64,000 nt of DNA from a virus. The position numbers and the translations under genes were made by a program. The stretch covers positions 64,001 to 128,000 of the IMG/VR virus record IMGVR_UViG_3300022188_000007. The stretch is one strand, 5' to 3'. A model generated the notes under the pieces. That model worked only from the letters and a program-made list of their open reading frames with translations, was not told the origin of the DNA and searched no databases. This document shows, in pieces, positions 3,378-29,800 of this stretch; position 1 is the first letter of the stretch, and every line of letters starts with the position of its first letter.

Positions 3378-3994
3378 TGAATAGAATATTTAGAGAATCT
3401 CGTAAACATATAACTACTAGATTAGAACAATCACTAGAAGTTCAGGTTGAAGTCATCAAAGAAATTATTATGGATGCCTATGATAGTTTGTCTGTCAAAG
3501 TAAGCGATCCAAAAAGTAAGACCAATCCTGAGATGTTTAGGGACCGATTCAAAGAGAGATTAGAGATTTTTGAATATTTATATAAGAGTGGAGAAGTTAC
3601 AGAATTAATTTTACCTGCATTAGATAATTTTAATTTTACAGGTATACCTATAGTGGAACAGATACTAGAGGGGACGGTTGGTACTTTTGTAGAAATTTCT
3701 CATGAAGATCTTACTAAACTTACAGGTAAATCTACCATTAATAATGAACCTATAGATCCTACAGTTACTAAACAAAAGAGGGTCTACCTAGTAAAATATG
3801 ATGATAAAATAAGACGGGGTGAAAAAAATATTTTAAAGAAAAAATTAATAAAGTTTTCTTTCTCCAACACACCTGCTTTAGATGCTACTGTCTTTGGGCC
3901 GGCAGAAGAGTATGTGGATAGTAATATAGAAAAGTGGATAGAAGGTACATTGAAGATAAGTATAAAAGAAATCTCACAAAAGTATGGGGTATAA
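3377..3994 (+). CDS. Hypothetical neck/tail-completion region protein
   Basis: 205-aa ORF coupled to the previous gene by a TAATG overlap; lies between the head-closure and terminator genes. Confidence 0.4.
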   Translation: MNRIFRESRKHITTRLEQSLEVQVEVIKEIIMDAYDSLSVKVSDPKSKTNPEMFRDRFKERLEIFEYLYKSGEVTELILPALDNFNFTGIPIVEQILEGTVGTFVEISHEDLTKLTGKSTINNEPIDPTVTKQKRVYLVKYDDKIRRGEKNILKKKLIKFSFSNTPALDATVFGPAEEYVDSNIEKWIEGTLKISIKEISQKYGV

Positions 3995-3995
3995 T

Positions 3996-4967
3996 ATGAA
4001 AAATTTAAGAAAAGAAGATTTAAGTTTGTATCGTTATATAAAGGATACAGTTCTAAGAGACTTTATAGAAAAAGAAGAAATGGTGCCTTTAGAGTTACTA
4101 ACCGAATTATCATGTAATGGGAGTTATGTTTATCAAGCGCAATCTCCACTGGAACCTTCCCCAATTGATAGGGGTAGAGGGTGGGTGTTCTTTGATTGCC
4201 CAGCGTACGATGATAATGGTGATTGTATATATTCTACTGATAATTGTATCTCTGAATTTGTAACAGTTACAGGTACTGACTATGGTAATACTATATCAGG
4301 TACTGAATACCCAGGCAATCCTTGTACAGGTACCCCTGAGCAATCTAATAGGGTGGTACTGTATGATGAGAATCTAGTTGTTATATCCGGCACACCTTAT
4401 TTAGTAGATTACACAGATGGTAGAATTATAATGGAAACCAATACAGTAGTACCTAAGTACATAGACTACTATTGGAATTATATAAGTGTTGTAGATGAGT
4501 GGGCTTCTATTGAAGCTTCAGAACCACCGGTTGTAGTAATAGACACTAGTGGTACTGATAAGGAAGGTTATCAATTAGGTGGCGGAAAAAAAGTTAAAAG
4601 GAAAGCAGAAATACATGTTTTTGCTGGAAATACTTCTGAACGTAACGATATTATAGAGACCATTCATGATGGCCTATATAATAAGTCAGCACCGGTTTAT
4701 AATTTTGCTACTGGGGATGTGTTAGACTATGACGGAACTTTTTATGGTCGAAAATATACCTCCAATAAACTAACCTCCTTATTTAATAGAACGTCTTTAA
4801 ATGATTTAGGTCAGCTTCATGGAGGAATGACTTTTAATAAAGTCTCGTCCAGGCATGTTAATTTACCGTTATTAATGTCTAGGGATCGTGGAGAAGTAAT
4901 GTTAAGTGATCTAAATGCTTACAGATCTAGAATAAGTTTTGAAATAGAAACTTATACAAGAAAATAA
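3996..4967 (+). CDS. Putative tail terminator / tail completion protein
   Basis: 'PPVVVIDTSGTDKEGYQLGGG...AEIHVFAGNTSERNDIIETI...YRSRISFEIET' fits the terminator-fold pattern; directly upstream of the tube gene. Start is likely the ATG at 3996 just after the upstream TAA (alternative 3984). Confidence 0.6.
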   Translation: MKNLRKEDLSLYRYIKDTVLRDFIEKEEMVPLELLTELSCNGSYVYQAQSPLEPSPIDRGRGWVFFDCPAYDDNGDCIYSTDNCISEFVTVTGTDYGNTISGTEYPGNPCTGTPEQSNRVVLYDENLVVISGTPYLVDYTDGRIIMETNTVVPKYIDYYWNYISVVDEWASIEASEPPVVVIDTSGTDKEGYQLGGGKKVKRKAEIHVFAGNTSERNDIIETIHDGLYNKSAPVYNFATGDVLDYDGTFYGRKYTSNKLTSLFNRTSLNDLGQLHGGMTFNKVSSRHVNLPLLMSRDRGEVMLSDLNAYRSRISFEIETYTRK

Positions 4968-5075
4968 GGACAGGCTCGTTGCTGGTGAGATAGCCTCATT
5001 AATCCAGTGATGAGAGGACGTTTTAACTACCAACCTGAGTGCTATTTAAAAAAATAACAGGAGGAAAGAATAAAT

Positions 5076-6674
5076 ATGGCACGTAATAGAATAATTTATG
5101 CTTCACAATCCGTATGGGTTGATGGTGAAGTACTTTATAGAGTACAGTCTCTAGGTACAACTACATCTTTCACATCTGAGGATATCTTTGAGCTTGGTCA
5201 CCTTGATATTATCGATGTTGTTGATGATGTACCTGCAGTAACTGTAACTTTGAACACCAATGATTTTGGTGACGTAAAAACATTCGCTAAACTAGCACAA
5301 GTGGCTCCAGCAAAAATTGCTATGGACGCTACTGCTGATATAACTAATGCTAATCTTATTGCAAATGGAACTTATATGCATGGGGTGGCGCTAGCTGATT
5401 TCGCAGTAACTTGTGGTAATCTTACCGGTGTTACTTTATGGGCGCCAGTTCAGGACGAGTGTTCTATTGGTACTTTGGCTAATAACATTGATCAAACTTT
5501 GTTTCTCGATGAAGTGTATATCAATAGTCTGGAATACAGCTATACAACTGGAGCTAACGCTACAGAGAATTATGGCGCGGAAACAGACAATAAAATGTGG
5601 TTACTGAATGATGGTAGGTTTGTCAATTTTGAATCAACAATTTCAGGTTCTATGGCAGATACTGATGTTACTAATGCACTTAATGCTACCCATATAGGTA
5701 ATGGTTACGTCGAACTTAGTTTAGGGGCAGGTGTAATTGCTGACCTTTCAACAGGTTTAGGTTTTTTGAGAAAAGATAACAATGGAGTTTCAGCCGTCAC
5801 TCATTATAATATGGTAGCTGGAACCGCTGAAAATGTAGCAGTTGTAGCAGGAGTAGCAGCAGCTGTTGATACTTATGTTTATAATTCTACAGGACATCTA
5901 ATTTATTTCCCAACAGGGCCTAATGCTCCAGTGCTTGGGGATGTTCTTGCAGTTGTTTACTCAGCTGATGCCTATTCAGCAGCGATGAATAATTACTTTG
6001 TACCTCTAACAGAGGAAACTACTAGACCTGATGCCGTAGGCGCATTAAGACAGGGCCAAGTAGAAGTATACATTGTTGATCCAGACTCTAGTGCAGTTGA
6101 TTATGATAATGCTTGGAGATTAACTGGTGCTACTATCTCTACTGACCTTACTCGTGAACCCCTTGCGGAGCTCGGGCACTTGGGTCCTTATGATAGACCA
6201 CTTACTCTACCTATTCCAATTACTATGAGTATTGATACTACTGCTGGTGACTTGGAAAACTGGGCCAAGTTTGCAGGAAAACTGGTCGACTATGATGCAA
6301 CGACTATCCAATCTATAGATCTTACAGATCTTATGACTAAAGATAATCTGACTCTAGTTGTTAAAGTTTTTGAACAAACTGATGAAGAAGCTGGTGGGGC
6401 TACTGGTGCAGGACGTAAAGTTCTTACAGGCAGTGATATGATTGGCGACGAATATTTTCTTGACGGTACAATGACAACGTATAGCGCACTCGATCAAGAG
6501 TATGCACTTAAAACTATAGTTGTTAAAAACCTTAAGATCACCGATGAGGGTATGACCCTTGACGTTGGTTCTAATGCAACACAGACATTTGGTTTCAAAT
6601 CCAGTAATGACCTGTACGTAGTTAAAGGTGATATATCTTACGCTAACGTTAATGCTATCATGCGTAATGCTTAA
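5076..6674 (+). CDS. Major tail tube protein with two tandem tube-fold domains
   Basis: Strong GGAGG RBS, downstream hairpin, canonical position before the chaperones and TMP; internal duplication (EDIFELGH...GANATENY vs EPLAELGH...GSNATQTF). Confidence 0.7.
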   Translation: MARNRIIYASQSVWVDGEVLYRVQSLGTTTSFTSEDIFELGHLDIIDVVDDVPAVTVTLNTNDFGDVKTFAKLAQVAPAKIAMDATADITNANLIANGTYMHGVALADFAVTCGNLTGVTLWAPVQDECSIGTLANNIDQTLFLDEVYINSLEYSYTTGANATENYGAETDNKMWLLNDGRFVNFESTISGSMADTDVTNALNATHIGNGYVELSLGAGVIADLSTGLGFLRKDNNGVSAVTHYNMVAGTAENVAVVAGVAAAVDTYVYNSTGHLIYFPTGPNAPVLGDVLAVVYSADAYSAAMNNYFVPLTEETTRPDAVGALRQGQVEVYIVDPDSSAVDYDNAWRLTGATISTDLTREPLAELGHLGPYDRPLTLPIPITMSIDTTAGDLENWAKFAGKLVDYDATTIQSIDLTDLMTKDNLTLVVKVFEQTDEEAGGATGAGRKVLTGSDMIGDEYFLDGTMTTYSALDQEYALKTIVVKNLKITDEGMTLDVGSNATQTFGFKSSNDLYVVKGDISYANVNAIMRNA

Positions 6675-8867: not shown

Positions 8868-11800
8868 TTGGTTAAAAAATATATATTCGAACATGCTTCA
8901 AATGAATCTAAAACATCTAGTAAGAGCGGAGGTTCTAAAGGCGTAGCGGTTGTAGAACTTTCCAAATCCGATCAAGCAAATCAGAAAAAAGTCCATGATG
9001 GCTTAAGAGAGATCAAGGAAGTATTAAAAAAACAAACTAAAGACACTTCTAGTAGCGCACTAATGCGCATGCTGGAAAAAGTCATAAAGGCTTCAGGCCA
9101 ATCTTCTAAGATAAGTTCGGCAGAACTTAAAACACTAGCCACAGCTTTCGCAAATGAACTCTCACGCAAGGGTTTTGGAGGGAGTGGTAGTGCTACAGTT
9201 TCCGGCCCACAGGGCAAAGCCTTAGATCCTAATATTATTGCTAAAGCAATAAGTAACCAAATAGCCCCAGCCCTGAAATCAGTTTTCAAATCTTTAGAGA
9301 CTAAAGATATTAAAATTGATCCTAAATCCCAAGAAGCTCTTCGTAAAGCGATGGAGTCTTCTGTATCTGATATTATCCCTTCAAAATTCTATAAAGTAAT
9401 AAATGACTTAAATTCTACACTTACCTCTGTGTTGGCGTTAAGTAAGACTAGCTTAAAGGCGTTTAATTCTGCAAAAGGAATGGCCTCTGACAAAGGCGGT
9501 CTTGAAGTAAAAGAGATTACTGGTTTTTATACTAATTTAAAAAAAGGAAGTAGCGAACTAAAAACTTTAGTAGGTCATATCAGTTCTCTTGTAAGAGAGG
9601 CAGATAAGCTTCCAGCTGAGCTTAGGGCTGCCGCCAAAGGTATGATAGACGCCGCCAGAGAAGCAAAAGATAAAACGGTACGTGGTGCTAGGGCGGTTCG
9701 TGAGGGAGCTCAAGTCCCTCAAGCCAAACTTGTTAAAGAGGTTACTAAACTTTTAGCTTCAGAGATAAAAAAACACACAACTGGTTCCACCAATCCAGCC
9801 GTCAACAATCTTATAAAAGCCCTTGATACTTTTAGTTCTAGCGCCGATGAGTTGACTAAATTAACTAAAGCACTTGATAATTTTGGAAAATCTATAGGCT
9901 CATTACAGTCAGACGGCGGAGTAGACCTAAAAGGCCTTCAAGGTGTATTGGGTAAGTTAGAAAAGACTATTAGTGCTATACCAACAGAAATTAAAGGTGG
10001 GGCTGTAAAAAGTGATGAGTGGAAGGATTTCATAGATCAGGCTAATAAAGTTATAAACACTGTAAAAACATTAGTTGTAAAGATTCAATTACCTAAAGAT
10101 GAAATAGATAGGTTCGTGAAACAGTTACCAGGTGAGTTTGACGTGGTAGCTAATATAGACATTTCTAATGTGCCTAAGGCTATAAAAGAAATAACTAAAC
10201 CGGTAGGTATACCAGTTAAGACTATCTTTTCTGCAGATGACATACAGAGGCGATTACGTTATGAGCATCCTGAAATTAGTGTAACCCAGCGAATCACAAC
10301 AGTTCATAAACAAGTCGAGGAATACCAATCTTCTAAGTCAGGTAAAGCCGTTAAAGAAGTTAGTTTACCTAATGCTAAGAGTGAAGCAGTTAAATTTTCT
10401 AAGGATCTTAATACTAGTGTAAATAATCTAATAAAAGTCTTAGAAGGGCTAAGTAAAGTTCATGCCACTGCTTACGGGAAACCGGTAGCTCAAGGATCAG
10501 CAGGAGATATAGCTAGTGATAGAATATCAGAGTTAATACATAAAATCCAAGACAAGAGAGGTAATACCTCTCAATTAAGGGAGTATGTAGATAAAACTCA
10601 AGGCCATGCCCATAAGACAGGAATACTTAGTCAGGCTGCCAGAGATGGGATTAAAGAGGTATATGAGATATTACACTCTACAACTGATGATGTTTTTAAT
10701 TCAGTTAAAAAATCTTCAGATCAAGCAACAAAGAATCTTGAGAGTGTAAGTAAGGCCTTTGATGCTGTAAATAAATCTTCGAAACAAATGGCAGACACCG
10801 CTAAAAATAATTTAGCTCAAACCCAACCATCTACAATACCTAGTAGTAGGCATGGAGCAACGTCAGTTAACACTGCCAGACAGGCACCTGCTTCTACTCA
10901 AAAGGAAGTATATAAATACTTTGAAGGTAATATCACACCTGGCAAGACAGCAAATATTGATGCAGGTAAGAAGTTAAATCTTGGAGAGGATTCTAGGAAG
11001 ATAGTTCAAGAGCATGTAAGCGGTTTAGCAAATTCGTTGTTAGACTTACAGTCGTATATGGTATCAACCCTTGAGAAAGAATTTGCTAAAGTACGTAAGG
11101 AAAGCAACTCTGGTAAAGATTGGAGGATAGTAGGTAAAACTGATACTGGCTCTATATCCGATTATTTTAAACTCACTGAAGGGTATAATCAAAAAACTTC
11201 AGGCAACGAGTATAGTTTTAAAATTGCGGATGTAAAAAATCTTAAGAGGGTTACTGGTAGTAAGACTAATGACCCCACAGCATTGATTAGTAAATTTAAA
11301 GAAGGGGTGTTTAAAGAGTTATTAGCTAAGAATGAAGCTACTATAGCAGAGTCAATTGGTAGATGGATGAAAAGGTTCTCAGAATCAGATATTTCTAGTT
11401 GGAAAGGGTTAGACTCTAGTACAGCAAGGCAATTAGCCGATATCAAATCTACCCATGATAAGGGACAAGGGACCGCACCATCCAAGAGGATGGTAGAGGC
11501 TATAAAGGGGTTAGGGGCTACAGACCCATCCGCCTTAAATAGAATATTTGAAAAGACAATTAGTGACATTGAAGCCACTCGTAGATTAGGCGAGAGAAAG
11601 TATGGCAGCTCAGTTCTAGTTAAGAAAATAGCTATACCAGCAGCTAAATTATCTGCAACTGGAGCGGCTACTATTGACACAGCTACTGGTAGTAAACGTA
11701 TCATTCCTAAATTTGCAACGTATAAAACCGGCTTTGAGAAGGTCTTCGAATCACTACAGAAAACTAAAACTTTTGATGTAGAGCAGGATTATCAAGGTAA

Positions 11801-14800
11801 AGTTAGGAAATTGGGAATCAGGCCTTCCGGCACCCAGTTTGAGGAAGCAAATAAAGTAGCTAAAGCAATGTTGATAGACCTAAGTAGGGTCAAGGATATT
11901 GTAAATGCTACAGGACAGACTACAGTGGATTCAGGCGCTGTTAGGGCTGATCTTGCTAAGCAACTAGAAACCTCCGTCGTATTAAAGGCAGGAAAATTAG
12001 AAAAATCAAAACACGTGACATCGGCTTCCGATGTATTAGCAAAAATAGACAAGAGTATTTATGCTGAGTTTGCTTCGGGCACAAAAACAATGGAAGAATT
12101 CATAGCTGCTACTTCTAAGGCCGGAGTATCTGCTTATGATCTAGTTAAAGGTATGGAGAGTATAGACTTTCAAAATATATACCAAATTTTTCAGAAGATA
12201 CTTGAGGGAACTGACTCTGTTAGTTCACCTCTTAAAGCTGTAGGAAAGAATCCAGATTTTTCTAAGAGTGTGAGGGATTTGGAATCTTATATTGGTAAAA
12301 TGGTGGGCACCATACCTATAGCGGACCCATCTCGCCCAAGACGGGCGTCTCATCAAGAAAAAGTAATTAATCTTATGAGTATGACCTCCCCTATTTACAG
12401 TCAAAAAGGTAAGGTAGGTACACAAGGATTGACCGCAGAAGGCCAGAAACAGTTCCTTAGAGATTTGAACTTATCTTTGCGGGAGTTTGTCAGGGATACA
12501 GCTATATTAAAAGATGCTGGTATGGGGCAGGGTAGATTACCCGCAGATGTTAGGACTCTATCTAGTTTGGGAGTACCTGAATCTCAAGCTGGAACTATAT
12601 CAGAATATAGAAAAGACGGTAGAAATGAAAATACGAAATATCTGGCTGCTCTTAATGCTACGACTGTTAAAATGTATTCTGATTCACTTTCAGAGATGGC
12701 TCCGTTTGGAGCACAATTTCAACAACTAGGTAGGAATATTTCCAACACTACTAATGCTATGGCATATAGACCTGGTGGAGGAGGGGTAGGGACAGACTTC
12801 CCAAGTTTACGTTCTGAGAGAGAAACTAAGTTGATCTCTGGCGGAAGGTACGGCGACAAAGGTTACGGTTTTAATGTTATAGCAGAGTTAAGAAACACCG
12901 CCTCTACTTTTGAAGATCAGATAGTAATATCAGGGAAGCTTGCTGATGTATTAACTTCTGTAACTAAGACTATAGTTCAACCAGATAAATTAGGTAGATT
13001 GAATTTAGTTGGTTCAGATGGCCAAGTGTCCTCATCACAGGAAGGTAGGGTAGGAGATATTAAACCTGATCAACAGTTAATAGGTGCTATTGAAACCGCC
13101 AATAAAGTATTTCAGGATGTTCTAGGAGTTAAACAAGAGTACAGAGGTAGAGCTGATAACGCACTTATCAAAGAGGTAACGAGTGCTTTAACTACCGTTA
13201 GAGGTAAAGATGTGCAAGTCCAGTCAGCCAAAATAGCTGAAACTTTTTTTAACCACTACGGTAGAAAGTTTACTACTAGGTATGGGTCCAAGGGTGTTTC
13301 TATAACAGCTCCTGGCGGTACAGGTGAATTAACAGGTAAGCAGTTAAAAGATTTATATGCGGATAAGAAAGTAAAAGTTTTAAGTAAGTCTGAAAGAGCT
13401 ACTGCTGGATTAGGGACTGTAGCTTTACCTAAAAGTATGGGACAATTAGTGCAGGAAATATATAAGGAGTATGCTAAAGAATTAGGACTATCTAACGCGG
13501 ATCTGGATGAGTCTCGTAAAGCGCTTATTAATAGTGGTAATAAATTCATGCTTAGTATGTTCACTGATTCATCCTTAGGGGTAGTTCCTGAAGGCAAAGA
13601 CGTAAAAGCACAACAGACTTTATTTACTAAAACAAAAAAAGCTTTAGCTAAGTTAGATTTTGATTTAGCTAAAGATATTAGCGGTATAGAGGGCTTAATT
13701 GAAGTTTATAAAGGAATGGATGGCTCTAAATTATATGAAGAAAAGCCTATAGATATTCGTATTAGTTCTCATGGTATTGCTAAGCGTGGACTTCAGGCTG
13801 AGAATCTAGAAGCTATAATGAATAATGTCATAGATGCTGGAGTTGCAGGTTCTACATCTTTAAAAACTAAATTTGACCCAAGTACTTATAAAAGATTATT
13901 GGGTACAGAAGAAGACACTACTGGTAAATTTCCAAGTCTTAGTGAGATTAGTAAGGCTTTAGGTTTTGAGAGTCAAGGTAATCCTAAAAAAAGAGGTCTC
14001 TTAGTCAAGGACATGATGAAACTACTTAAATCTAGAAATGTCCCGGGCACTGAGGATAAGTTACTAGCACAAGCCGGAAAACTAGCTGATTTGGAGATTG
14101 GATCTAGTTTCTATAGTGATATGCGAGATGAGTTTGGAAAGAGCAGGAAGAGCCTAATAGGGCCCAAATTCGTTGAAGTAATCGAAGACCCTAATGCAAA
14201 TCCAGCATGGAGCGAAACTGATATAAAGAAACAGGTAGCCGGCCAGAAGATAAATATACCTGCCTTCGGCGCTTATGCTACTGTATTTGGCGAGCAATCC
14301 CAATTCATTAAACAGATGACCTCATCTATTCCTTTAGACTCTAAGAAGCACTGGGAGTACTTAAAAGCTCTACAGGTATTAAATGATGACAGTTCAGAGA
14401 TGGCAACGCAGTTGTTATCCTCTGCTCAAGAGGTAGACGTAAGTAGTTTAAGAACCTTTACAAAATCTACTGGAAAATTTGTATCTAGAGCATCAATGTC
14501 TAATATAACTGAGATGCCTGAAGAAGATCAAGAGAGGGTTTTAAATGATACTATATTGGATATTGCAAAATTTCCTGGAGCAATGAATTTAAAAATACCT
14601 AGTACTAAAGATCCTTCTAAACGTGAATCTTTTTATGTACCAGGTGCATTAGCTCGTACTACTTACCCTGAACCTTCTTTGGCAGGAGAACGCGGCCTAG
14701 ATATGACGGCTCGTAGATTACAGGCAGTCGTAAACGCGGCAAAGAACGTAGACGAAGTAGCCGGCCAGTCAGATGAGTCAGGTAGTAAAAAGTTATGGAA

Positions 14801-17800
14801 TACTGTAGGTAGAATTAAGAAGAGATTAGCTGGTTATAGAGGGAGAGTTAAAGGGATAGTTGGGGAGTCTCCAGGTACTAAACAATTAACTTCTGGTGAG
14901 GTAGGTGAACTTGAAGGTATTTTAAGCACACTATTAGTTACATTAGATCAATCATCTGCCGATGAGAGAATGCTTTATAAGAATCAGCAGCATTTAAAGG
15001 GTGGTACTAGAGGTGATGTTATCAGAGCGTTTAAAGATAATAAATCTGGTGAAGGCAAATCACAGGCCCAAGTTTACCAAACTACTATAGATCAGGCTGT
15101 GGACCAACTTATAGGCCCGCAAGGAAGCCCCGACCCTAAAAATCCTCAGTGGGCCAGTAGGTATGACAAGCAGGCTAATGTATTAGGAGGTAAGGCTTAT
15201 AACGCTGGTCTAGCATCAGTAGAGCAGTTCGCCAAAAGCTTGAATGTACAACCATCTGATTCTGAAGATGACTTAAAGAAAGCCCTTCAATCATTAGAAA
15301 GAGCGAAAATTGAATACTATAATACCTTGGCTACTTCTGCTTTAGGTAAGACAGGTTCAGTACAAGAATTTCTATTTAATAGAAAAATGCCAGCAGTAAT
15401 GGGCAAAGCCATAAATGCTACAGTGGATAAAACAGAGGATCTAGATAATTTTAGTAAAGAACTGCTTTCAATCAGCTCGTCTGCTGGAGGTATAGGGGTA
15501 GATTTAAGTGCTTTAGAGGAAGCCTCTGAAAATATAAAAAAAATAAAAATAGAGCATGCTGAAAATGTGGAGAGTGCGCGTTCTAAAGGGATGCCTGTAT
15601 TAACTCAACATCAAGTTGGTATCCCTGAAAGTTACGCATCTAAGCTACCTACTAACTTTGCTAGAAGGTATGAGGTAGATGGAGGAACCGTACAAGAATT
15701 AAAAAAACCTATTTTTGAAAAATCTAATTTAGCTAAAATGTTGGATTATAGAGAAGAGATACAAGGAGCCCTTGATAATGTAGCCCCCGGTATGCGCTCT
15801 AAGATGGAAGCCTATTTGGAATCAGAGCTTTCTCCTTATTTAGAAAGTATGCGTTTCCCTGTCACAGGTGTAGCGTCTATTCAGCCATATGAAGCCAAGC
15901 TATTAAAACAAGGAGAAGGTCGTCAAATGACCAAACATACTTTAATGGCCCCAGGTATGCCAGAGATAGATATGGGTAAGTTTGATGCAGCTAAAAAACA
16001 AGTTGACTCAGTAATTGACGAACTAACCGAACAAAGAAAACTAGAGTATAAAGAAGAGTCCCCTGATCTGGAAAGAATAAATCAGTTAACTGCTACTATA
16101 GCCGCACTAGATAAGGCTATCTCTGATGTAATTCCTAAGTTTATAGCAGTCCAACAGAATCTAGATTTTGACGGTGATCAGATACAATTACACGCCGCTA
16201 AGACAGCTCTAGCGAGGCAAGAAATTTCACAACACTTTAAAACTATAACTGATTATGATAAGCAGGGAGGCACTACTGCTCAAGCTTTAAGAGACCAATC
16301 CACCTATAAAGCTTTAATACCATCTACAGAGAAATATACTTTAGCAGAACAGCAGATAGCCTTTTCAAAGAAGTTCCCAGAAAAAGAAGGGTTCGGTTTT
16401 ATGACTAAACCTTTCCTTACTGAGGGGCTAGATTATTTAAAACCTCAAGAACAACTAGATATTTTAAGTACTTTTCCTGGAGCTGGTGGAACAGAGAATA
16501 CCCCATTAACTGTTTTAAATAATCTATTACCAGAGCTTTTTAGAAATGAAAAACATATGGCTAAAATTGCCATGACATTGCAGGCAGTAAAACCGGAAGC
16601 CGGTAAAGATACCGCATCCAGTCAAGCGCTATTAAACGCATTAGCAAAAATGAAGCCGGTAGAAGACCAACCCAGTAGTGGTAGAGAAAAGGCCGTATTT
16701 GAAGAAGGTATAAAGACTAAGTTATATGATACTAAAATGACTAATGCTATTAATGCCAACTTTTTTAAACTTAATACCGGACAAGACACTGAAGCTCTGA
16801 ATAGGCAGTTGAAGTTATTTGAAAGAAACTTAGGGTACGGTGGCGGAGTTATACGACAGGGTGCTCAATATGAGCCTACTGCTAATTTAGCAAGTCGTTT
16901 TCCCCTAGACCTTAAATCCATGGGCAACACAATGGGGGAAGAACTACATACCATGATGAATGAGTTTTTACGTGTAGGGGTACAGAAAGGGCTGGATGTA
17001 AAACATGCTGGAGAGACCCCAATTGCTACTGAAATGGCAAATCTAATATCTAAAGGGTCCCCAGGCGTTTCAAGCTTAATAGAAAAGATAAATGCCGGAG
17101 AAGGCTCATACGGCGACCTTACTGATTTTGCAGAGGCAAATAAGAAATCCTTAGGGCGTAGATTAGGTGGTATGTCTACCGAAGATTTGTATCTTGATGC
17201 AGCCAGTATTGCTGGAGGTAGAGGTGAGTCTACTACTAAACTAGATCCAGGTAATAGAGAAGAGCTTAAAGAATACATCACTAAATCTATAGGATTTGAG
17301 GGCTTTCTTCACGAGCTGAGTAATCAAGTAATTGAAGCGGCGCATGAAGGGCTTATGAAGTCAGTTAGTGCTTGGTCCGATACCAAAAAACAAAAAGAAT
17401 TTAAAGGTAGTTCAGCAGAAGACTATGTAAAGGCTTCTATTAGAAAACAACTTAAGGGTGACGGTATTAATATATTGGATTCAGCGGAAAGTCCTCTAAT
17501 GCCTTTATATAAAATGAGGACCTCTGGCGCATCAGGCTATCAACAACGTGGTCTATATCAGGATAAATATGGTGACGTAGAGGCTCCTGAACTCGAAGGA
17601 ATCTTCCAAGGCAAAGAGGCTGATGCTTATGCCGCTAAGTATAAGGAAGCTAAAGCAGTAGCTAAAAATATACAGGATGCTCTTATAGACTTTAGTTCTA
17701 ATAAAGGTGGTAATAAGAAAGGCAGTTATTCAATGCTACTTGAAAGCAGTATAGAGAATATCTACGCTGATCAGAAAGAGATTATGAAGTTAGTACAGGA

Positions 17801-20800
17801 AATGACACTTGAGAAAGATAGAACTTCTTCAAGTGTAATGGATAGATTAAGTGGTGACGCACCTATGCATGGTTTTGCCAGGGAAGCTCTAGGTAAGAAG
17901 AACAGTAAAACTCAGAAAGAATTTCTAGAGAAATATAGTAGAATTGTAGGAGTTCCTAGCCTAGGTCAAGAATCCACAGCACTTCTGAAACAAGAGTATC
18001 TTCCTCAGGCAGCTTTCCTAGCTAATGCAGAGAAGGGGCCAGCACCACTTCAAGGTGAAACTACAGACGGAGCATATCAAGATATATTAGATGCCCATGA
18101 TAAAGCTGTAGATAAGTTAAAAGAACAATATCTAGCGGATGCTATAGTAATAGCTCAAACAGATAATATATTAAAAGCAGCCAAAACTAAAACAGGAGAA
18201 GCAACCTTTTTAACGCAACTACTCCCCACCTCTAAAGGTGATTATGCTAGTAAATCTTATGATGATCGTAGACAACGTATATCTCAAATCGCAAAGGAGA
18301 AAGTCCAAAGAGCTAATTTTGAACAACTCACTCATCCAAGAGGCTTAGAGAGAGATGCTTTTGGCAGATCAATGCCAAGTGGAGGAGGTCCAGGAGGTCC
18401 AGGAGCACTGAGCGTAGGTGGTACAGGGCCAATTGTGGACGTAAATATTGCTAGTGTTGCTGAAGGTGTAGGCGTCTTCCTAGGAAGGGCAGCCGGAATG
18501 GCCAAGACTACTGAGGATACTAGTCCTAGATTTACAATTTCTGAAGAATTAGAAAAAAAATTAGTAAGGGCTGAGGAGATAGTAGATGAGATTACCGGTG
18601 GTTTAAATAAGGCTACAGGTGATAGTTTTGCTAATAAATATAGAGCCAGTGGGTTAAAGGGAGGTCAAGGGCTAGACCAAATAAATGAAATTAAAAAACA
18701 GATGCAGGGCATCAAAGCGGGTAGGAAAGCCCGAGATATTCTAGATTCATCATCTTTACTAGGTACAGGCATTCATGCTAAACTAGAAGATAGTTATAAG
18801 AAGGAGTATATAACAGAGAGACCAGTCAGGTACGACTCAGTAGCTGGAGAAATCTCTGGCACAGTAGATGCAATTAAATATGATGATAATGAGATTGCTA
18901 CTCATATAGTAGATATTAAAACTACAAGTCAAAAGAACTACGACGATTTAAAACAAGCTGTAGCTAGATTCCAAGAAAAAACTGGTAAAGAAACTCCTAC
19001 ACTAGATGAGATAAAAGACTATGTAGGTAAGAATCTAAAAGATAGTAAATTAGGTGATGTAGCCTCTCAGCTGAATCTATATCTTGCTGCCACCAGTGAG
19101 GATGCTAAAGCATCCGCTCATTTCTATAGTAGAACTAACCCTGATCAAGAACCTATTAAGCTAGACCAGTTTTTTGATAAAGAGCGGCTAGATAATGATG
19201 TTGCTGCGGTAGGTCAAGCTAGAAGGGAGATTAAGTTGGAAGGCGGATCATTCGCTAAAACAGCTTCTTATACTGAAGCCGAAGAGATAGAAGTTTTACT
19301 GAAAAAGAAAGAAGTGGCCGAAGCAACTATAGCTGAATTAATAGCTACCAGTACAGAGTATTATACACTAGTAACAAAGCAGGGTCTCCGTGCAAGAAAG
19401 AATCTACCTTCAACAGGCGGCCTATCTGATAAAAGTTTAAATATGATAGGTACACGTGCTAGAGAATTTCAAGCACAGTCTGTTAAATTTGATGATATGG
19501 TTACAGCGAATCCTATAGCTGAAGGTCGAGAGACTTATAAAGTGCATCAGAACCTTAATGTGCTGCATGAGCGTGCTAAATATTTTCAACAAAAAGAGGG
19601 TTATGAAACGTCTGGTCCCCGGTTTGATAAAATGCACCCCCAGATCCAAGAAAGAGTAACGGAGCACGGCGAGAAGGGCCCAGGGGGCGCAGCCTTTAGT
19701 GCCCTAGTGACTGAGCTTAAAGATACTGGTAAAATTGAGGGCGGAGAGATTAATGCAGCATGGAAGGCATACAGATTAGCTGTGGGGGATTACTTTGTTA
19801 AAAAGATGGCTGCTGCAAGAAAGGAATTAGATAATACAGACCCAGGGGCTGATAATATAGTAAATGTTTTCGGTGCCTACCAGAAGTCTGTTCAAGCTTT
19901 TCAGGATTTTGCTAAGCATGGTCTAGGCAAACCTACAGATATTTATACTTATAATAAACAGTACTTACATGCAGAATCTGCAAGAGGGGCCGGAATTTAT
20001 ATGGATTCAGCTGCCCTTCAAAAAAAAGCATCTCAGCCTCTAGGAGAAGACCCCACATTACGTAATATCTTCCAAAATATGACTAATCTAGAGGGCGACT
20101 CGGTACCAATTCCTAGAGATTCTGTTAGGGCAGCATTGGAAGATTTAATGGATATGGATAGATCATTGATTAATCTTTATACAAATGCAGAAAAAGTAGC
20201 CCATATGGGCAAAGATATAAATCTAGGATGGAATTTTGATAAAGTAAAAGGCGGATTATCTAGATTAAGAGCAGCCCTAGACTTACAACTGAAACAACCA
20301 GTAGGTGAGCTTTATAATGAAGATCAGATAACCTATCTTAGAACAGTTTTAAAGGAATTAAAAGGACTGGAGACTATTTATATCAGCCTAGATCTGGATA
20401 CAGACTCTTTTAAGAATCCCACAGGTGAATATAAATTCCCGACTTTAGTTCCTGTACCGAAACAATTATCTAGAGACCAGCAGTCTGCCATGCATTACCA
20501 GAATATTGAAAAAATTAAAGGTCATTATAGAACACCAGAGGCAGAAGGTGGGGCCAGGGAAGGGGATTCCTTTGTTTATAATGCTAAGACTTTCGGGCCT
20601 AGCGGTAAACAGATGGATAACCAGAGATTTGTAATTTCTAAATACGGTGAAGCAATAAATAGTGCAGGGAAGTCTGTTCCAATTCTGAAAAGTAGGCTAG
20701 ATAACTTAAATAAATCCTTAGTGGACGGTAACAGAACTTTCAGTGTTGCTATAGAGAGAGTAGTTAAATGGGGCGCAGCCGCCACACTAGTTTATGGTGG

Positions 20801-23800
20801 ACTAAGTTATATTAAAGATGCTGTTAAACACATGTCTGATGTTGAGACTGCTATGGCTAGATTACAGATGGTGATGAATCCATTAACTACTGATTTCGAC
20901 TCTCTACAAAAAGCAGCTTTAGGTTTTGCTAAGCAGTATGGTGTGGAGACTACGGATGTTTTAGGTAGTATGAAGGTATTTGCACAGCAAGGTTTGAGCC
21001 AAGGGGAAGTAGAAGAGAGGACCCAAACTTCTACATTAGCAGCTAATGTTACAACTTTGAGTGCTGTAGACGCTACTGAAGCCTTAACTGCAGCTATGAA
21101 GGTATTTAGAGCCGAGGGTGAGAGTTCTATGAGGTTCTTAGATTCTTGGAGTCAAGTAGAGGCAAGGGCAGCTATTACAGCCGGCGATTTAGCCGATGCC
21201 ATAAAAAAATCAGCTTCTGCTGGTAGGAATGCCGGGTTCACTTTTGATGAGTTGAATGGTATGGTAGCTGCTATAGGGTCTACTACACGTCAAACAGGTA
21301 AAGAGGTAGGTACTTCTTTAAGATTTATCTTCAGACGAATTTCAGCGGATAAAGGACCTAAAGCTCTAAAAGGTGTAGGAGTAGCAACTACTACACCGAA
21401 AGGCACACTCAGACCTGGTTATAAGGTACTTGAGGATTTGGCAGGTAAGTGGGAAGAGTTAGAACAAGCTCAAAAACTAAGTATAGCCCAGGCTATTGGT
21501 GGTACTCGTCAGTACAACCAGGTATTAGTATTGATGGATAACTGGGACCAAGTAGTGAAAAGCACAACCGATAGTATGAATGCTAAAGGTTCAGCTGAAA
21601 GAAGAAACCTTAAGTTGATGAAAACTTATTCTAAGCAATTAGAACAAACTAAAGCAGTCTTTTCTGCGTTAAAAGTAGAAGTAGGTAAAGTAGTTCTTCC
21701 TAGTTTTAAAGCAGGTCTAACCGGTATAAGAGGATTGGTAGAAGCGGTGAATAATGTCCCCGCATCTTTTAAATTAGCTGGAGCCGGGATGGTGTTATTT
21801 GTGGGATATATAACTAAAGGGGCTGAGGCCCTTAATACCATAATGAGCCTAGTAGATAGAACTAAACTTTCTTTTTCAGCCCTAAAAGATGATTTTTCTA
21901 AAGGGATAGATAAAGGGATGTTTGAGGTCTTTGGTAAAGGTACTCCAGAGCTAGATTCAGATTTATTTGGTCTTTCTAAGTTAAGTGATACTGGTACTGT
22001 AAATATTGATGATATGGAAAGCTCTTTAGGTAAGTTAGCTTTCGGGGCTTTATCAGCAGGTCAAGCCTTCAATAAATTCGCAGGCATAGTAGGCTCTGAC
22101 TCTGCGTCTGCAGTTTCTGCAGTCGGTAAATACGTGACAGCCTTTGGCGCTCTAGTAGAAAAAACAGGCACCGGTATATCTTTAATACCAGGGATACCTG
22201 GTCCAGTAGACGAAGCTGTAGGGGTAGCAACAAGCTTTACAGGCAAAGCAATAAAAGGTACTGGCGGAGCTTTTGATTTTGTAGGTGATAAGGTGGGTAA
22301 AGGGGCCCAGTCCTGGATGGAGGGCTTTGCTTCACAGAATACATCTGCAATGAAATCAATGGCCCCACTTTTAGGTACATTAGGGGGGATAGCTTTATTA
22401 GCCCCAACAATAATAGACGCATTCAAAAACTTAACTCAATCTGCAACAGACTATAAAGATGAGCAGTTAAATAGGTTGGAGGTAGATGCTAAGGAGATTG
22501 ATTCTCTACAGGGATTAATTACTTCATATAAAAATTTACAAGATCAGAAAGAGAAGATAACTAGATTATCAGACCCAAAGGTTCAGGCTAAGGGTATAAA
22601 ACGTGGCGAATATAAAAGCCCTATCTTGGAAAAGATTGACGCTTTAAAGGCTACTAGAACATTTGATTCTAACTTAGGCGCTATGGACCCTAGCATGATA
22701 GCAGGTTTCGATGAGTTTGGCCGTGTAATATTAAGTAATACAGCTAATCTAACAGGATATCTAGAGGAATTAAAAAGAGCCAAGACTGTCACACTAGCCT
22801 TATCTAAACTTAAAATAGCAGCCCGTTTTACAGACGATCTTACTGAGACGGGGGGCAATCAAGAATGGAAGCAGCAGGTTAAATCACTTGCAGCCGAATT
22901 CCCATTAATTGGTGAAATGTTGGCTAAGAATATCACTGTAGGGCCTAAGAAAGCACTAGAAGTTATAAGAGAAGAGCTAGATCAACTTTTAGCGGCTAAA
23001 GCAGAAGCCCCTATGTCTACGGCATTTGATTCAGACATAGAGAGATCATTAACAGCACATGCTAAAGTATTAAAAACTTTCAGTGCTACATATGCAGAAC
23101 TAGGTAAAACCTTAAGTAGTATAAGTACTGAAGGTGCTACTGTAACTGATATCGCGGATCTATATAAATCACCAGACGCATTGAAGACGTTTGATCTTCA
23201 GGCCGCATATGAAGATAAATACCAGATTGCTGAAGTAAGGGGAACTGTTAGTGGTAGAGACATCGCAGCATCTAAAGTATTAAGAACTCAATCAAGTGGA
23301 CTGGGTTCTTATATAGAAGCGTCTAGTGTTCTTACTGAAGCTAATTTATTTTCGGCAGGACGATTACCTAGGAAACCCAAGAAAGATGGCACTATAGGTG
23401 CATCAGATAATGACCTTGTTACACTTAATAAAAACTTTGCAGAGAAATATGGTATTGCTACAGGCCAAGCTACTTTGAAAATAGGTAAAGACCATAAGTT
23501 ATTCTTAGAATTTATAGACGCACTCACAACAACCCCGACTACTAAAGAGTTTTCACAAGCAGAAATTGAAGCAGCAGCAAGAGCTTTTTTCCCTGTTGAT
23601 GAGATATTACAAAAGGCCCAAATAAGTGTAACTAAGCTTAATACTTTTGTAGCTGGAGCGTCAGCAGGTATATTAGGGGTATCTGAAAAAAAATTAAATA
23701 CACGTCAGTTTGATTTAGGTGAACGCTTCTACGATCAAATTCCTACTAATGTATTATTACAGACTGAAAAAGGTTACAATACAAAAACAGGTACTTTTGG

Positions 23801-26800
23801 AAAACAGGACTATAAAGAAGATTATAGTTCAGACTTTATTGATAAGTATTATGATCCCCTACAAAAGTATAACACAGCCAAATCTGCCTTAGGGGGAGAC
23901 AACGCCTCATTGGACGCCTCAGTATTAGGAGGTCTGGCCGAACAACTTCGAGGCCTACAAGATATTTTAAAAAACAATTCAATAGCTTTTCAATATAGAG
24001 CAGCAATAGAGGATTTAAATAAAGCACTGTATGAGGGGGCTAGAGCCACAAGGAAAAGTATACTTGTAGAACAAGAAAGGCAAAAAGTTGATAAACATAC
24101 TGCTGGGTTTATGCGCGGTAAAACTAAAGGCGTGGCTTCTATTGATCAGGGGGTTACTAACTATAAAGATTTAAATGATCAGCAAAGAGCCTCGTTAATG
24201 TTTAAAGATTATGATGCCCTAGCAAAGAAAATTCTTGTACAAGAGACTAGTATTGAAGGCTTAATAGGCCAGTCTAAGTCAGTTGCAAGCACCTATGCGG
24301 ATATCCAAGAGATAGGTAAAGCTCCTGAAGGTTTTGATGCAATAATGACTAGGGGCCGTAATGTTGAGTTAATGAGTATTATGGATAAAGTAGATAACGA
24401 TAAGGGGGCTGCTCAAATTTCAATGAGAGTTTCGGAACTGAAGTCTCCTTTAGAGGGTATTTTAGCGAACACCGACATAATGGCCGCCAATACCTATGGA
24501 AGACCAGGGGATATTAAAAGAGCTGCAGCTACTGCAGAAGAGAACTTAGTTATAGCCGAACAAAGGAAGCTTGCAGGTAAAGGCCCATTGGATAATACTG
24601 TTGACAATAAAACTGATCCAGTGAAAACATTCAAAAGTCTTCAGAAACTAATGACCATCAGAGACGCCGCCGCAAAGGAAGGAGATACTGTTACTGTACG
24701 TGCACTGGACAATACACTTGCTGATTCTTATGGTAGGGCTTTGAAAGTATATGGTATGAAGGATTTTGCTAGGTTAACTAAACTAGTTGCTCCTACCAAG
24801 TTTTTTTCTTCCAATAACAAGGAATTAGTGGCATCAAGGGCATCCGCTTTAGCACAAAAAGGTATAGGTACAACTCCAGACAGAATGATGCAATCTATAG
24901 AGTCTGCTAAGATGGCAAAAGCCGCCCTAAGGACTCAGAGCTTTATTGATAAGTTAACTGCCTTTAAAGCCCCTGAGAAAGAGATCGAGCGTGCAAAGAA
25001 TAGGCAGTGGTATGTACCTTCTAAAGAAGTAAGGGACTATGAAAAAGCCTACGCAACAGATCCCAGTAAACCACTAATAAATCCTAAAATATTTGAGAAG
25101 GCTCTAATCGCTGGAGCAATACTTCCTGCTTTTCAGGGGAAATCTTTGGGTGAGAAGAGAACTACTATAGAAGATCAAATAAACAGGTTACAGAAACAAA
25201 AAGATAATTACCCTAAGGAAGGTAAAGAGGCTGAAAAGCTAGGGATTGATAAAAAAATAGAAGGCTATCAAAAGATATTAACGGATGATTTAGATCCTCA
25301 ACAATTTGTAACTTCCACTTTACAAGGGCTATCAACAACAGCACTTGCTGCATACGAAGGGGTGGGAATATTCGGAGGCTCCCAGTCTGATAAAGAAAAT
25401 ATGGCTGCCGTAGGTGCAGGTCTTTTTGTTATAATGAAATCACTAGAGTCTAGAATAGGTAAAGACAATATGCCACAATATTTCAAGGACTTTTCTAAAG
25501 AAGCAGTGGATAAGATTAAGATCGCGGTTGAAACAGGAGATTACTCTGATATGGCCAATGATCTAGGTAAAAAAACCAAAAAGTTTTTAAAGGGTTTTAA
25601 TAAGTCCATGGAAGCTCAAACCGAAAAGGCGGAAGACGCAGGCATTGACCCTGAGAAAGACATTAGAGAACGTCGTAAAAGACTAAAAAAGTTAAATGCT
25701 ACCCTGGATCTGGAGAGTACTACTAAGTCTCTTAATGAGGTCACTGATGTAGGGAGCAACAATTTGTTGAGAGGGTTAGAAGCCATAGCAGTTGTAATGA
25801 CTGCGCAAGCAGTTGGGGGCTGGAAATCTAAAAAAGGGGAAACAGCAGCCAGAGTCAAGGATGGTGTAAACGTAGCTAAACAACAAGGTCTAGCTTCTTT
25901 AGCTTACTCTGAAAAGAATGCTGCAGCCGTAGATGCCTACATAGGAAAGCTTGTACTGACCCAAAAGGAGTTGGCAGAGAAGAAAGGTCCTGATGGCGGA
26001 GCAATTAATATAGTTATGGATGTTATGGAGGACTTTAAAACTAGTTTAACATTGGCTGCTGCCGAAGGTAAAACACTTGAGGAAGCAATGTCAGGGCTTC
26101 AAGATAAAATAGGTGACACTAAAGTTTTTACCGGTATTTACACAGATGTGGCTAAATTAATAGGAGCTATGGAGAACTTTAGAGCAGAACTTCAAAAATC
26201 ATTTACAACTTTTGATGATAAACGTTTATTAGATCCTACACGTTCTTTAAAGGGAGAGTTATTGGGTTTTGGGGGCGAGACAACTCTTCCAATAGGTAGA
26301 CGTGACATGTCGACTCAACAAAGAGCTTACGCAGGTGGGTCAGACTCCTTAAGGTCATCCTTTGCAGTAATGTCTAAAGGGATTTTGATACAAGAGGCCC
26401 AAATAAAAACTTTAGGTTTTGTTAGATCTCAGATAGCTGACACTGAACAAAATATAGATTTTGGTACCAAATATGGAACATCTGATTCACAATTAGAAGC
26501 TTGGGAGATGCACTTAAAGGGGCTTGAAGGCACTCTGGCTAACTTACAAAACGTGACTACTTTAACTAGCCAACAGTTGCAGGCGTTGGGTACTTCTATG
26601 CGAGGGGCTATTAAGTACTCAGAGGCTATCAACAAATTAAATGATGCTTTGGCAGATGTTTCTGTGGAGCACGCTGTAACTGGTATAACAGGATTAAAAA
26701 CTTATTTTGATTCTTTTGAGGTGTTGCTAGGTGGCTCAGATCCGTTAGCCGCCCAACCTGTTTCACCAGAACAAGAAAGAATGGGAGCTAAGGTAGGAGT

Positions 26801-29800
26801 AAGATTAGTTTCTGGTGAATCAACCTCTATGGATATAGAACGTGCCCAGTTACTCACAGAGATAAAGAATGCCACAGACTCTAAATCTAGAACTGCTGCT
26901 AGTATAAAACTAGGAGATCTTGATGAGAAGTATAGAAGGTTAGGTATTGATAAAGAACAACAAGTCGAGAACCAGCGGCTTGGTTCTACTATGAAGCCTT
27001 ATGAGGATTTTTACCGTAATATGGAAGGGTTGTTAGGAAGTAATGAATTAAATGATAAACAATATGGAGAAATTAGTGGCGTTAAAAATGAATTTAAAGA
27101 AGCCATGAAAAGAGCTACGGAAAAAATACCTATAGATGAGGCAATAGCTCAGCTGGAAGGGCAAAAAGACAACTTAGGGGCTAATCAATTCAAGGAAGCC
27201 ATGAAAGAATTAGTGGCAATGAAAGCAACAGGGACTACACAAGTATATAGAGGTATGGATAGAACCAAAGACTGGCAAGGTATTATGAGTAGAGTCATGG
27301 CAGGTTATGATAAAGAAATAGATGCATACAAGGCTGCAACCGGTACTACTGATTTAGATACTTCTTTAGAAAACATGGTAACTAACCCACTAGTAAATGT
27401 TATTGGGATGTCTAATCTACTTCTAGCTGAATTAGTGACACACTTTGTAGACAAAAAAACTGCGGCAGACATACTCAATGGGCCTCAAAAAAAAGAGTTA
27501 GAACCAGATTACTTATTTTCTTCAATAGTCCCTGATAAAAAAGTTGTATTAGCAGAAGCACAAGATTTTCTGAAAGGCATTAGTATTAATCCTGCGGACA
27601 ATTTAAAAACACAGCCATATGATTTCAATAACGACAATATTGATCCAAATAGAGGCCGCCCTACATTGTTTGGTAGACCTGTAGGTCCAATAAGTAAAGA
27701 TGCGCTTGGGTTGCCTCCAATACAAGATAAGGTAGTACCTCCACCTCCAACAGAGGTCGAATTAGCTGCTAAAAAGCATCCTAGGTTTAAGGAAATGGAG
27801 ACTTACGTGAAAAATATAAGCCTTGATCCTATAGCTAATTTAAAAACAGAGCCATTTGGCCCTAATTCTGAGCAAGACAATTCACAAATTGTAGCTGTAA
27901 ATGAACTTCAGTTAGTAACTCTAAAAAAAATAGCTACCAGTCTTAGCAGTAATGGTTCTGGTGATTCCACTGAACCTACTACTAAAGCCGCAGGCGGAAG
28001 AATCTTTGGAGAAGGTGGTCCAAGAGAAGATAAGGTACCCGCTTATTTAAGTCCAGGAGAGTTTGTAATAAGAGCAGCTGCTGCACAACGGCTTGGTTAT
28101 GAGAATCTAGATGTAATGAATAAGAAAGGGCAGGTCCCTGTGGCTTTTGAGAGTGGGGGCTCCTTAAACCAGAGGCACATAACACAAGCACATCAGTATT
28201 TTGTAGATCCTGATGCGGTACTGCCCCCAGAGTTTAATCCAGAGTCAGAGCTATATAATAAAGGAATAACAGGTAAATATATTGATTTACGGAAGTCAAT
28301 GCTTTCTGAAGAACAGCGGGAAGCTGTTGCAGGTATCTCCACATTAAAGGGATTATATAATACTTTTTCTGATATGGCTGGTAATGATGAGGATAAATTA
28401 AATTCTTTATTTCCTGAAGATATAATGCCTGTAATGGAGCGTTTCGAAGAGAACAAAAAAGCCCAAGAAGAGAAAGGTATATTGGGTTGGATGAAAGGAA
28501 AATTAAAAACCAAAAATAAGGCAACAGCAGGTGCAAGGGCAGTTACAGGCCTTGATAAGGCCGAGTTATTAAAAGAAATAAGTACCTATGCTGACGGTGG
28601 CCGAACCATTAGTACTGTTACTGGTAAACCTATACCCACAGCAGAGGAAACAGAAGAGGGTATGGCAAAGATGCGAGAAGCTTTAGGTTTTGTAGCTTCT
28701 GTAGGTCACCCAATTACTTCTATCCCCACCTCTATCTATGGCATGTATCAAGGTTTTAAAGAAAAAGGTCTTAGTGCCCAACCAGCTGTTGAAGGTTTTG
28801 GGGGCTTAGAACTATTAAATTATATACCACAGGCTAAAAGACTCGGTAAAATGAAAACAATTTTAAGTAAAGGTTTTGGTAGATATTTTGATAACGCAGG
28901 GGACGTGAATGATTATTTTGATATTACTGGTAAGTTAGGGGGTAAACTAACTTCATCACACGGAGATGATTTTGACGCGTTACTAGCTTCCGAGAATACT
29001 TTTGAGGAGGGCGGCTTATCTCTTTGGGATAAATTACTGGGTAAACAGTTCGATCCTACAGAGAGATGGAAGGGTAAAAAGTTACCATCAGGTATGGGAA
29101 AATTTGATAAACCTGAGGTGACAAAAAAATTAGAAGACGAAATAAAAGCTACAAAACGCCATGATGTTCATTCTTTTAGTTTCCTACGCGAAAAACATGG
29201 TTTTGTGAAAGCATTACAACTTTATGGTGCAGGATCTCGTTTACAAGAAGGGGCAGATATATTAAAGAAGGCTGATGGTGGTAAGATAAGAAGTTTTATA
29301 GGTGATTCCACAGGAGTAGCAGAGGTAGGAGAAGAGTTATTTAATGAAAGAATCAATGCCCCTGTACTAACTCGGTCTGTGGCCAGTATGATTAAATCAG
29401 AGTTTGGCACCTCAGACGTAGGTAACAATCAATTAGGTGCGCCAGTAGATAAATTAATGGGCACTTCGTTTGATCCATCTGCTACCATGTTAAAAGATAG
29501 TAGAGCTTTTACAGCTGTTGGTAATAATATAAAATCATATGCTTCTACAGCCGATTTTAATACCGGTAGAGCGAAGTCTGATAAATTGAAGGGCAATATA
29601 GGTAAAGGTAATATAATCCCAGGTATGGATGGATTAACCTCTATATATGATGGATTCTTAACTTCCAAATACAATAGCCCCTTCTTATCGCAAGAAGAGC
29701 AATCCAACAATAGGGCTTGGTATGAAGCCACTAGAGAGCAAGAGATAACCAATAAACAGAAATATGAATTATTAGGTGATGCAAAAACAGACGCAGATAG

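Follow-up and report, generated by a model that had tools for sequence, protein, structure and literature searches.

A candidate two-barrel RNA polymerase of cellular type embedded in the tail tape measure protein of a family of large uncultured phages

Identification of a polymerase module within a tape measure protein

We analysed a window of 64,000 nucleotides, i.e., the whole stretch from position 64,001 to 128,000 of the IMG/VR virus record IMGVR_UViG_3300022188_000007, a 144-kb record that is 55% complete according to CheckV. The window holds a giant open reading frame (ORF) of 7,801 aa, a single uninterrupted frame on the plus strand (8868..32273) that encodes a tail tape measure protein, and part of the same polypeptide is a conserved single-chain homologue of the beta and beta-prime subunits of RNA polymerase (RNAP) with intact catalytic residues. 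Taken together, the evidence makes it likely that aa ~900-2900 constitute a single-chain, cellular-type, two-barrel RNAP that resides in the tail tape measure and is injected for early transcription. Enzymatic RNA synthesis by this module is predicted from its sequence, and its presence in the virion, its ejection, and a role in early transcription are suggested by analogy with gp96 of the Thermus phage P23-45 and by the cysteine composition of the protein.

The giant ORF opens with a variable N-terminal region and ends with a variable C-terminal one; between them lie, in this order, the RNAP module, a nuclease, and the tape-measure core. We mapped conservation against 77 giant homologues (mean identity 35% over aa 900-2900), the set to which the conservation figures below refer. 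In this map, aa 1 to ~700 are variable and aa ~900-2900 are conserved, the latter comprising a beta-like module (aa ~907-1839; 11586..14384, plus strand, as for every feature of this ORF) and a beta-prime-like module (aa 1840 to ~2900; 14385..17567). A further variable stretch (aa ~2900-3180) lies between the RNAP module and the nuclease and closes with the Gly/Pro linker GGGPGGPG (aa 3172-3179; 18381..18404). The nuclease that comes next is a putative PD-(D/E)XK (Cas4/RecB-like) domain (aa ~3312-3405; 18801..19082), recognized through weak matches to Pfam PF12705 (E 0.038) and PHROG 1706 (E 2.5e-4) at aa ~3312-3365; its residues D3334 and K3351 are 86% conserved in the family. The tape-measure block (aa ~3600-5100) is strongly conserved, and the C-terminal half of the protein is variable. 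Within this block, PF10145 (PhageMin_Tail) matches aa 4014-4212 (20907..21503) with an E of 9.5e-28 and 97.9 bits, passing the Pfam gathering score of 33.2, and 13 PHROG tape-measure families match aa ~3,900-4,760, the best being PHROG 4211 (E 5e-80). These matches identify the giant ORF as a TP901-family phage tail tape measure protein. The RNAP module and PF10145 lie in one frame, which is the architecture of gp96. Because polymerase, nuclease, and tape-measure core belong to one polypeptide, the RNAP would be built into the tail as a component of the virion.

Collinear beta and beta-prime motifs

A preliminary description of this DNA had proposed that beta-like motifs and then beta-prime-like motifs are arranged collinearly in the one ORF. 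All 13 motif strings that it listed are found at the residues it named, and the set is conserved in the homologues. On the beta-like side these are GAATI (932), GSKRII (941), MAPFGAQF (1277), GFNV..FEDQIVIS (1334), GRKFTTRYGSKG (1465), PIDIRISSHGIAKR (1627), and GQKINIPAFGAY (1792); on the beta-prime-like side they are YVPGALAR (1923), QAVDQLI (2076), LGKTGSVQEFLFNRKM (2159), PVLTQHQVGIP (2243), MRFPVTGVASIQPYE (2328), and NLDFDGDQIQLH (2431). This order is collinear with Escherichia coli beta 134, 669, 812, 1063, and 1269, followed by beta-prime 424 and 458 (positions taken from NC_000913), and the spacing from K1467 to K1475 equals exactly that from K1065 to K1073 in E. coli beta. Residues D2433, D2435, G2436, and D2437 are invariant (77/77), while K1467, K1475, G1476, E1349, and D1350 each occur in 97% of the homologues and R2329, P2331, and G2334 in 97-99%, bearing out the earlier statement that the three catalytic Asp and both Lys residues are intact. 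In a six-frame translation of the whole 144-kb record (ORFs of at least 150 aa), the giant ORF carries the sole DxDGD-type site, the only other match being a DFDAD in a 180-aa ORF. Judged from these comparisons, the motif pattern exceeds chance.

Twelve of the 13 motifs fall on well-aligned columns with above-average conservation. The exception is QAVDQLI, which had been put forward as the counterpart of beta-prime QEAVDALL; it lies in a variable, poorly aligned stretch (identity 0.25, coverage 0.6), and we dropped the assignment, the resemblance probably being due to chance. The motif at G1792 is present as described, although its proposed equivalence with beta 'RFGEME' appears to be better fitted by F1807-G1808-E1809, which is 97-99% conserved.

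Within the beta-like module, MAPFGAQFQQLGRN (aa 1277-1290; 12696..12737) is the counterpart of beta 'PFLEHDDANRA' (E. coli 669), with P1279, F1284, and R1289 conserved in at least 91%. The surrounding region (aa 1255-1368) aligns in hhalign with the separate RNAP that related phages encode (see below; Prob 93, E 3e-7). The start of the beta-type barrel corresponds to GFNVIAELRNTASTFEDQIVIS (aa 1334-1355; 12867..12932; E. coli FEDS 812), where E1349-Q1351 lie inside the predicted beta/beta-prime interface and the local pLDDT is <50. The Lys pair is contained in GRKFTTRYGSKGV (aa 1465-1477; 13260..13298; 95-97% conserved), with K1467 and K1475-V1477 inside the predicted interface. In this barrel, the residues of the FED motif and the Lys pair are thus conserved to 95-97%, but the motif segments have a pLDDT of <50 in the models. 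Further on, PIDIRISSHGIAKRG (aa 1627-1641; 13746..13790), the counterpart of beta 'PVDIVLNPLGVPSR', has G1636 and K1639-L1642 conserved in at least 92%; in the model it forms a strand and then a helix, and S1634-G1641 are among the tightest predicted contacts to the beta-prime-like part.

The beta-prime-like module has the two elements of a beta-prime-type barrel, i.e., a DFDGD-type Mg-binding triad with an R-x-P-T motif upstream. The latter is contained in MRFPVTGVASIQPYE (aa 2328-2342; 15849..15893), the counterpart of beta-prime 'NRAPTLHRLGIQAFE' (E. coli 424), whose residues R2329, P2331, T2333, and G2334 are 95-99% conserved and lie inside the predicted interface. The triad D2433, D2435, and D2437 is contained in NLDFDGDQIQLH (aa 2431-2442; 16158..16193; 100% conserved), with D2433-D2435 inside the interface. 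Downstream, we propose a candidate bridge helix (aa 2623-2663; 16734..16856) with conserved K2634, T2637, G2638, E2642, and R2646, in which the predicted contacts with the beta-like chain recur with helical periodicity (2623, 2624, 2627, 2631, 2641, 2642, 2645, 2646, 2649), as would be expected of a bridge helix. A candidate trigger-loop motif, NE..R...QKGLDVKHAG (aa 2698-2715; 16959..17012), is 91-99% conserved at its defining positions, and its Q-to-H spacing equals that from Q929 to H936 of E. coli beta-prime, which has TFHIGG at 934. Conserved motifs and interface periodicity suggest that both elements may be present and that the polymerase is possibly complete. In the ESM Atlas, aa 2440-3170 matched viral clusters without a name, all below 0.9, and nothing else.

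Profile searches point to the same sites. PF00623 (RNAP Rpb1 domain 2) matches at NLDFDGDQIQLH with a sub-threshold E of 0.001-0.003; scanning each member of the first family alignment (27 in all) singly showed it to be the only recurrent Pfam family (14/27), always at the Asp triad. In hhalign, E. coli RpoB is matched by the family profile once and weakly, where GRKFTTRYGSKGVS aligns with beta 1062-1076 (E 0.18), and against RpoC only the DFDGD stretch aligns, on beta-prime 457-481 (E 0.008). A tblastn search of 50,697 GenBank phages gave no match, nor did PHROGs on the RNAP part.

Predicted structures and the interface between the barrels

The AlphaFold2 model of aa 900-1900, built from a 78-row alignment (A3), has a pLDDT of 82 and a pTM of 0.71. 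When this beta-like model was compared with 48,161 PDB cluster representatives (without Foldseek), places 1-9 were all taken by second-largest RNAP subunits, plastid PEP beta among them. The RNAP module aligns with nearly the whole of beta and with the clamp-containing first third of beta-prime, at a sequence identity of ~10-17% in the structural alignments. The models thereby support a match of the predicted folds to RNAP beta and beta-prime subunits. The preliminary description had looked to AlphaFold and Foldseek for an RNAP fold; the nine top-ranked representatives agree with it, whereas Foldseek itself gave no match at E <= 0.001.

We then folded aa 1270-1839 together with aa 2290-2719, giving each segment a separate alignment, in three runs and with three controls. 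The ipSAE is 0.79, compared with 0.00 for the best of the three controls; 58 of 80 solved complexes attain this score, as do 2 of 110 mismatched pairs. The runs have at least 72% of contacts in common, and the partner pLDDT is at least 73. The confident interface comprises E1349, D1350, Q1351, K1467, and K1475-V1477 on the beta-like side and the neighbours of R-P-T-G, D2433, F2434, D2435, Q2438, and H2442 on the beta-prime-like side. In the model, the two barrels therefore face each other and form one active centre, with DFDGD and the two Lys residues converging on one site, as the preliminary description had anticipated. Solved structures include many beta/beta-prime complexes, and this result is therefore to be read as a predicted likeness to those complexes, not as independent proof.

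A widespread family that retains the fusion

Searching with aa 900-2900, we found 50 homologues, all in proteins of 4,290-13,652 aa and nearly all of 6.5-8 thousand residues. Each of the 50 carries PF10145 as its sole precomputed domain, and those with a name are called only 'TP901 family phage tail tape measure protein', just as had been foreseen for annotation pipelines. An exhaustive phmmer search of 1.84 billion representatives returned 109 clusters, every one of them this family or its fragments. Scans recovered 34 loci in IMG/VR and 91 in metagenomes, 80 of which were kept. Contigs of the family reach 325 kb; at 50% identity it divides into ~100 clusters, and its tape measures are 6.5-12 thousand residues long. 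The fusion of RNAP and tape measure is retained in every near-full-length member, the most distant included. In this most distant relative (a 256-kb record, 97% complete; L124, G003:C1, ~108020-108100), the homologous frame has 12,316 codons.

Absence of cysteine

The giant ORF contains no Cys in 7,801 aa, compared with 12.1 per 1,000 in the rest of the record's ORFs, and the chance of zero Cys at that rate is ~5e-42. Cys is likewise absent from 61 of 79 giant homologues, with a maximum of 4 (homologues P0002-P0136), and from P23-45 gp96 (0 in 5,002 residues; L132:8288-23296), whereas the separate RNAP of related phages has 16 in 1,102 aa. Without Cys, neither of the two Zn sites of cellular beta-prime is present in the beta-prime-like part. 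Such a composition would suit storage or translocation of the protein in an unfolded state and its passage across the envelope. It is consistent with ejection; gp96, whose delivery is experimentally supported, shares the avoidance of Cys.

Comparison with known polymerases

To our knowledge, no polymerase had been recognized among tail proteins before 2024. The precedent, named in the preliminary description, is gp96 of P23-45 (also of P74-26, G20c, and TSP4), a tape-measure-fused virion RNAP (Chaban et al. 2024, PMC10770324; PDB 8H2M, 8H2N), which has been demonstrated to transcribe the first phage genes without the host enzyme and whose delivery is experimentally supported (PMC10770324). Like the giant ORF, gp96 places a two-barrel RNAP N-terminal to the tape-measure part in one polypeptide, and both have a DFDGD-type triad and are free of cysteine. 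The precedent holds for this architecture and not for sequence kinship. We examined homology to gp96 residues 327-1124 and found none that would place the module in the gp96 family; when the family profiles were run in hhalign against gp96 1-1200, the surroundings of DFDGD (E 0.02) and a helix that is unrelated (E 0.16) aligned and nothing else did, neither sequence nor profile searches of the PDB brought up 8H2M or 8H2N, and gp96 is absent from the listed structural matches. Moreover, gp96 is minimal and clamp-less and belongs to a small Thermus phage group, whereas the module described here has ~2,000 residues and a fuller beta and beta-prime. Since gp96 kinship is lacking and the module resembles full beta/beta-prime, it looks like an independent, cellular-type fusion that would work like gp96 rather than a relative of it. 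Literature searches on fusions of tape measure and RNAP found only the P23-45 work, and no description of this family turned up in the searchable papers; the 'moraphage' paper (PMC12619734) deals with another lineage, which has contractile tails.

The module shares with cellular RNAPs (E. coli RpoB/RpoC; eukaryotic Rpb2/Rpb1 and A135/A190) the collinear motif set, and these provide the best structural matches; the predicted interface likewise joins the Lys pair and the Asp triad. It differs from them in that its single chain takes the place of two and forms part of a virion protein, in lacking Cys and hence both Zn sites (E. coli RpoC has 15 Cys), and in lineage-specific helical insertions, e.g., one of ~60 residues within the barrel of beta-prime; partners equivalent to alpha, omega, or sigma were not identified for it. 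The multisubunit RNAPs of jumbo phages have virion versions that are packaged into the head. Unlike the module, the jumbo-phage enzymes (AR9 nvRNAP, 7S00/7S01; phiKZ nvRNAP, 7OGP) are assembled from four or five distinct polypeptides, none of which is a tail protein. Similar in layout are SPbeta YonO, gp66 of the crAss-like phage phi14:2, QDE-1, and the 1,102-aa RNAP of related phages, all of which have both barrels in one chain with the beta-like one first, as here; phi14:2 gp66 is also ejected from the virion (PMC10770324).

Some relatives encode a second polymerase. In related records G002/G004, two large relatives of which one is 100% and the other 87% complete, we found free single-chain RNAPs of 1,102 aa (L127:712-4020, minus strand) and 1,178 aa (L128:1-3537, plus strand). 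The free RNAP, a candidate for a non-virion polymerase, has PF00562 and PF00623 in one chain with clear beta and beta-prime motifs. It is matched by the tape-measure family's beta-like profile (the E of 3e-7 given above) far better than E. coli RpoB is, suggesting that the beta-like part and the free RNAP share a phage-borne origin. P23-45 likewise has a separate single-chain RNAP gene, so that the coexistence of free and tape-measure RNAPs parallels its virion and non-virion pair; here, such a gene occurs only in some relatives.

Discussion

As a plausible mechanism, the giant protein would exit through the tail at infection, probably unfolded or partly folded because cysteine is nearly absent. 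The ejected polymerase part would then refold and transcribe the first genes of the phage with no need of the host's own polymerase, as P23-45 gp96 does, with the nuclease co-travelling, and in some relatives the free single-chain RNAP could handle later transcription. If so, this would be the strategy of Thermus gp96, now with a different and much fuller polymerase, in a large and widespread family, and an entire lineage of uncultured jumbo phages may not depend on host RNAP when infection begins. A natural beta/beta-prime enzyme in a single chain that lacks Zn sites would be useful for defining the minimal requirements of multisubunit-type RNAPs, and it sharpens the physical question of how a ~220-kDa enzyme is stored in and passes through a tail. 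Annotation pipelines overlook this polymerase entirely.

Several observations weigh against this interpretation. The sequence-only evidence is all sub-threshold, PF00623 reaching only 18-21 bits against a cut-off of 25.3; a search of the whole record with PF00562 gave no candidate even at E 10, and phmmer with aa 850-2900 as well as hmmsearch with the family profile against all PDB sequences returned coiled-coil noise and no RNAP. Foldseek against the PDB yielded zero matches at E <= 0.001 with either model, its weak rows being enriched in RNAP beta-prime and beta chains, and in an unbiased search with the beta-prime model, RNAP chains ranked level with short four-helix bundles. Residues 1346-1355 and 1468-1487 have a pLDDT of <50 in both AlphaFold2 models and are partly helical, so that the double-psi geometry of the beta-type barrel is not actually modelled, and the bridge helix and trigger loop are candidates drawn from motifs and co-fold contacts. 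A folded polymerase of ~2,000 residues exceeds the lumen of the tail tube, so that the proposed mechanism does not explain the route of delivery; nor does it explain where the ~3,900 N-terminal residues are housed. Finally, a second RNAP was not found on this 55%-complete record, nor in three of five large relatives; either the pairing of virion and free RNAPs is not universal or the gene was missed.

The size of the folded enzyme would favour an alternative in which the polymerase is active but not delivered as a fusion, being cut off by a protease at tail assembly and discarded or packaged apart, or in which the precursor works in the cell before assembly. In other phages, tape measure proteins are known to be processed, and the variable stretch and Gly/Pro linker at aa ~2900-3180 set the RNAP apart from the remainder of the protein. 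We nevertheless regard this as improbable: the fusion is kept in all near-full-length members, and the avoidance of Cys, common to gp96, spans the RNAP part, a pattern that an enzyme confined to the cytoplasm would hardly account for, whereas the free RNAP has its 16 Cys. The two-barrel module could instead have another main job, either as a motor that pulls in the ~300-kb genome by transcription or as a QDE-1-like polymerase that is primer-dependent or RNA-templated. By far the closest matches, however, are subunits of DNA-dependent multisubunit RNAPs along long collinear stretches, and a motor role would be compatible with early transcription, so that we give this possibility a similarly small chance.

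That the beta-type barrel has no confident model would speak for a catalytically dead structural relic, serving as tail bulk or as a plug. Its catalytic residues are kept in 95-100% of members at an overall identity of 24-35%, which points to selection on catalysis and makes a relic very unlikely. An assembly artefact, i.e., a chimera joining a polymerase gene to a tape-measure gene, had been raised in the preliminary description as an outcome that would overturn its reading. More than 100 independent contigs, drawn from different sources, show the same order in proteins of similar length (6.5-8 thousand aa), and on a separate 318-kb contig the protein is identical except for two repeat units; the ORF is therefore not a misassembly, and the probability that we would still assign to one is negligible. 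An injected, early-acting RNAP of cellular type remains the explanation that we favour.

Beyond this, one can picture a more elaborate version, which we offer tentatively and consider rather doubtful as a whole. An independent fusion of a full beta/beta-prime polymerase and a nuclease to the tail ruler might have produced a cysteine-free train of injected enzymes that is threaded unfolded through a tail of about half a micrometre or more. The polymerase would then refold, start transcription, and help to pull in the ~300-kb genome, while the nuclease would attack host or competitor DNA. Tail-delivered polymerases would, in that case, be a recurrent and convergent solution in long-tailed phages and no peculiarity of a single genus.

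Genomic neighbourhood and C-terminal repeats

Upstream of the tail genes lies a gene for an HNH endonuclease (1913-2785; PHROG 559, E 3.5e-26). In a Pfam and PHROG scan of 10 neighbouring ORFs, this was the only match apart from a weak, sub-threshold Big_1 (43444-46422), and a PHROG-only scan of 10 further neighbouring ORFs gave nothing. With neighbour matches so scarce, only the tape-measure domain supplies the context of a tail module. A search of 5 records for the tail sheath family PF04984 gave no match, which is consistent with a non-contractile tail and no proof of it. Two large downstream ORFs, at 53624-59215 (1,863 aa) and 59645-64000 (extending to ~3,395 aa in the record), have no Pfam or PHROG match. 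The credible genes of the window are nearly all on the plus strand.

The C-terminal region of the giant ORF contains a tandem repeat with an 84-nt (28-aa, 'VEDK..') unit in 4.4 copies (31452..31817). As the near-identical protein on the 318-kb contig has exactly two of these 28-residue units fewer, the repeat copy number varies between near-identical phages.

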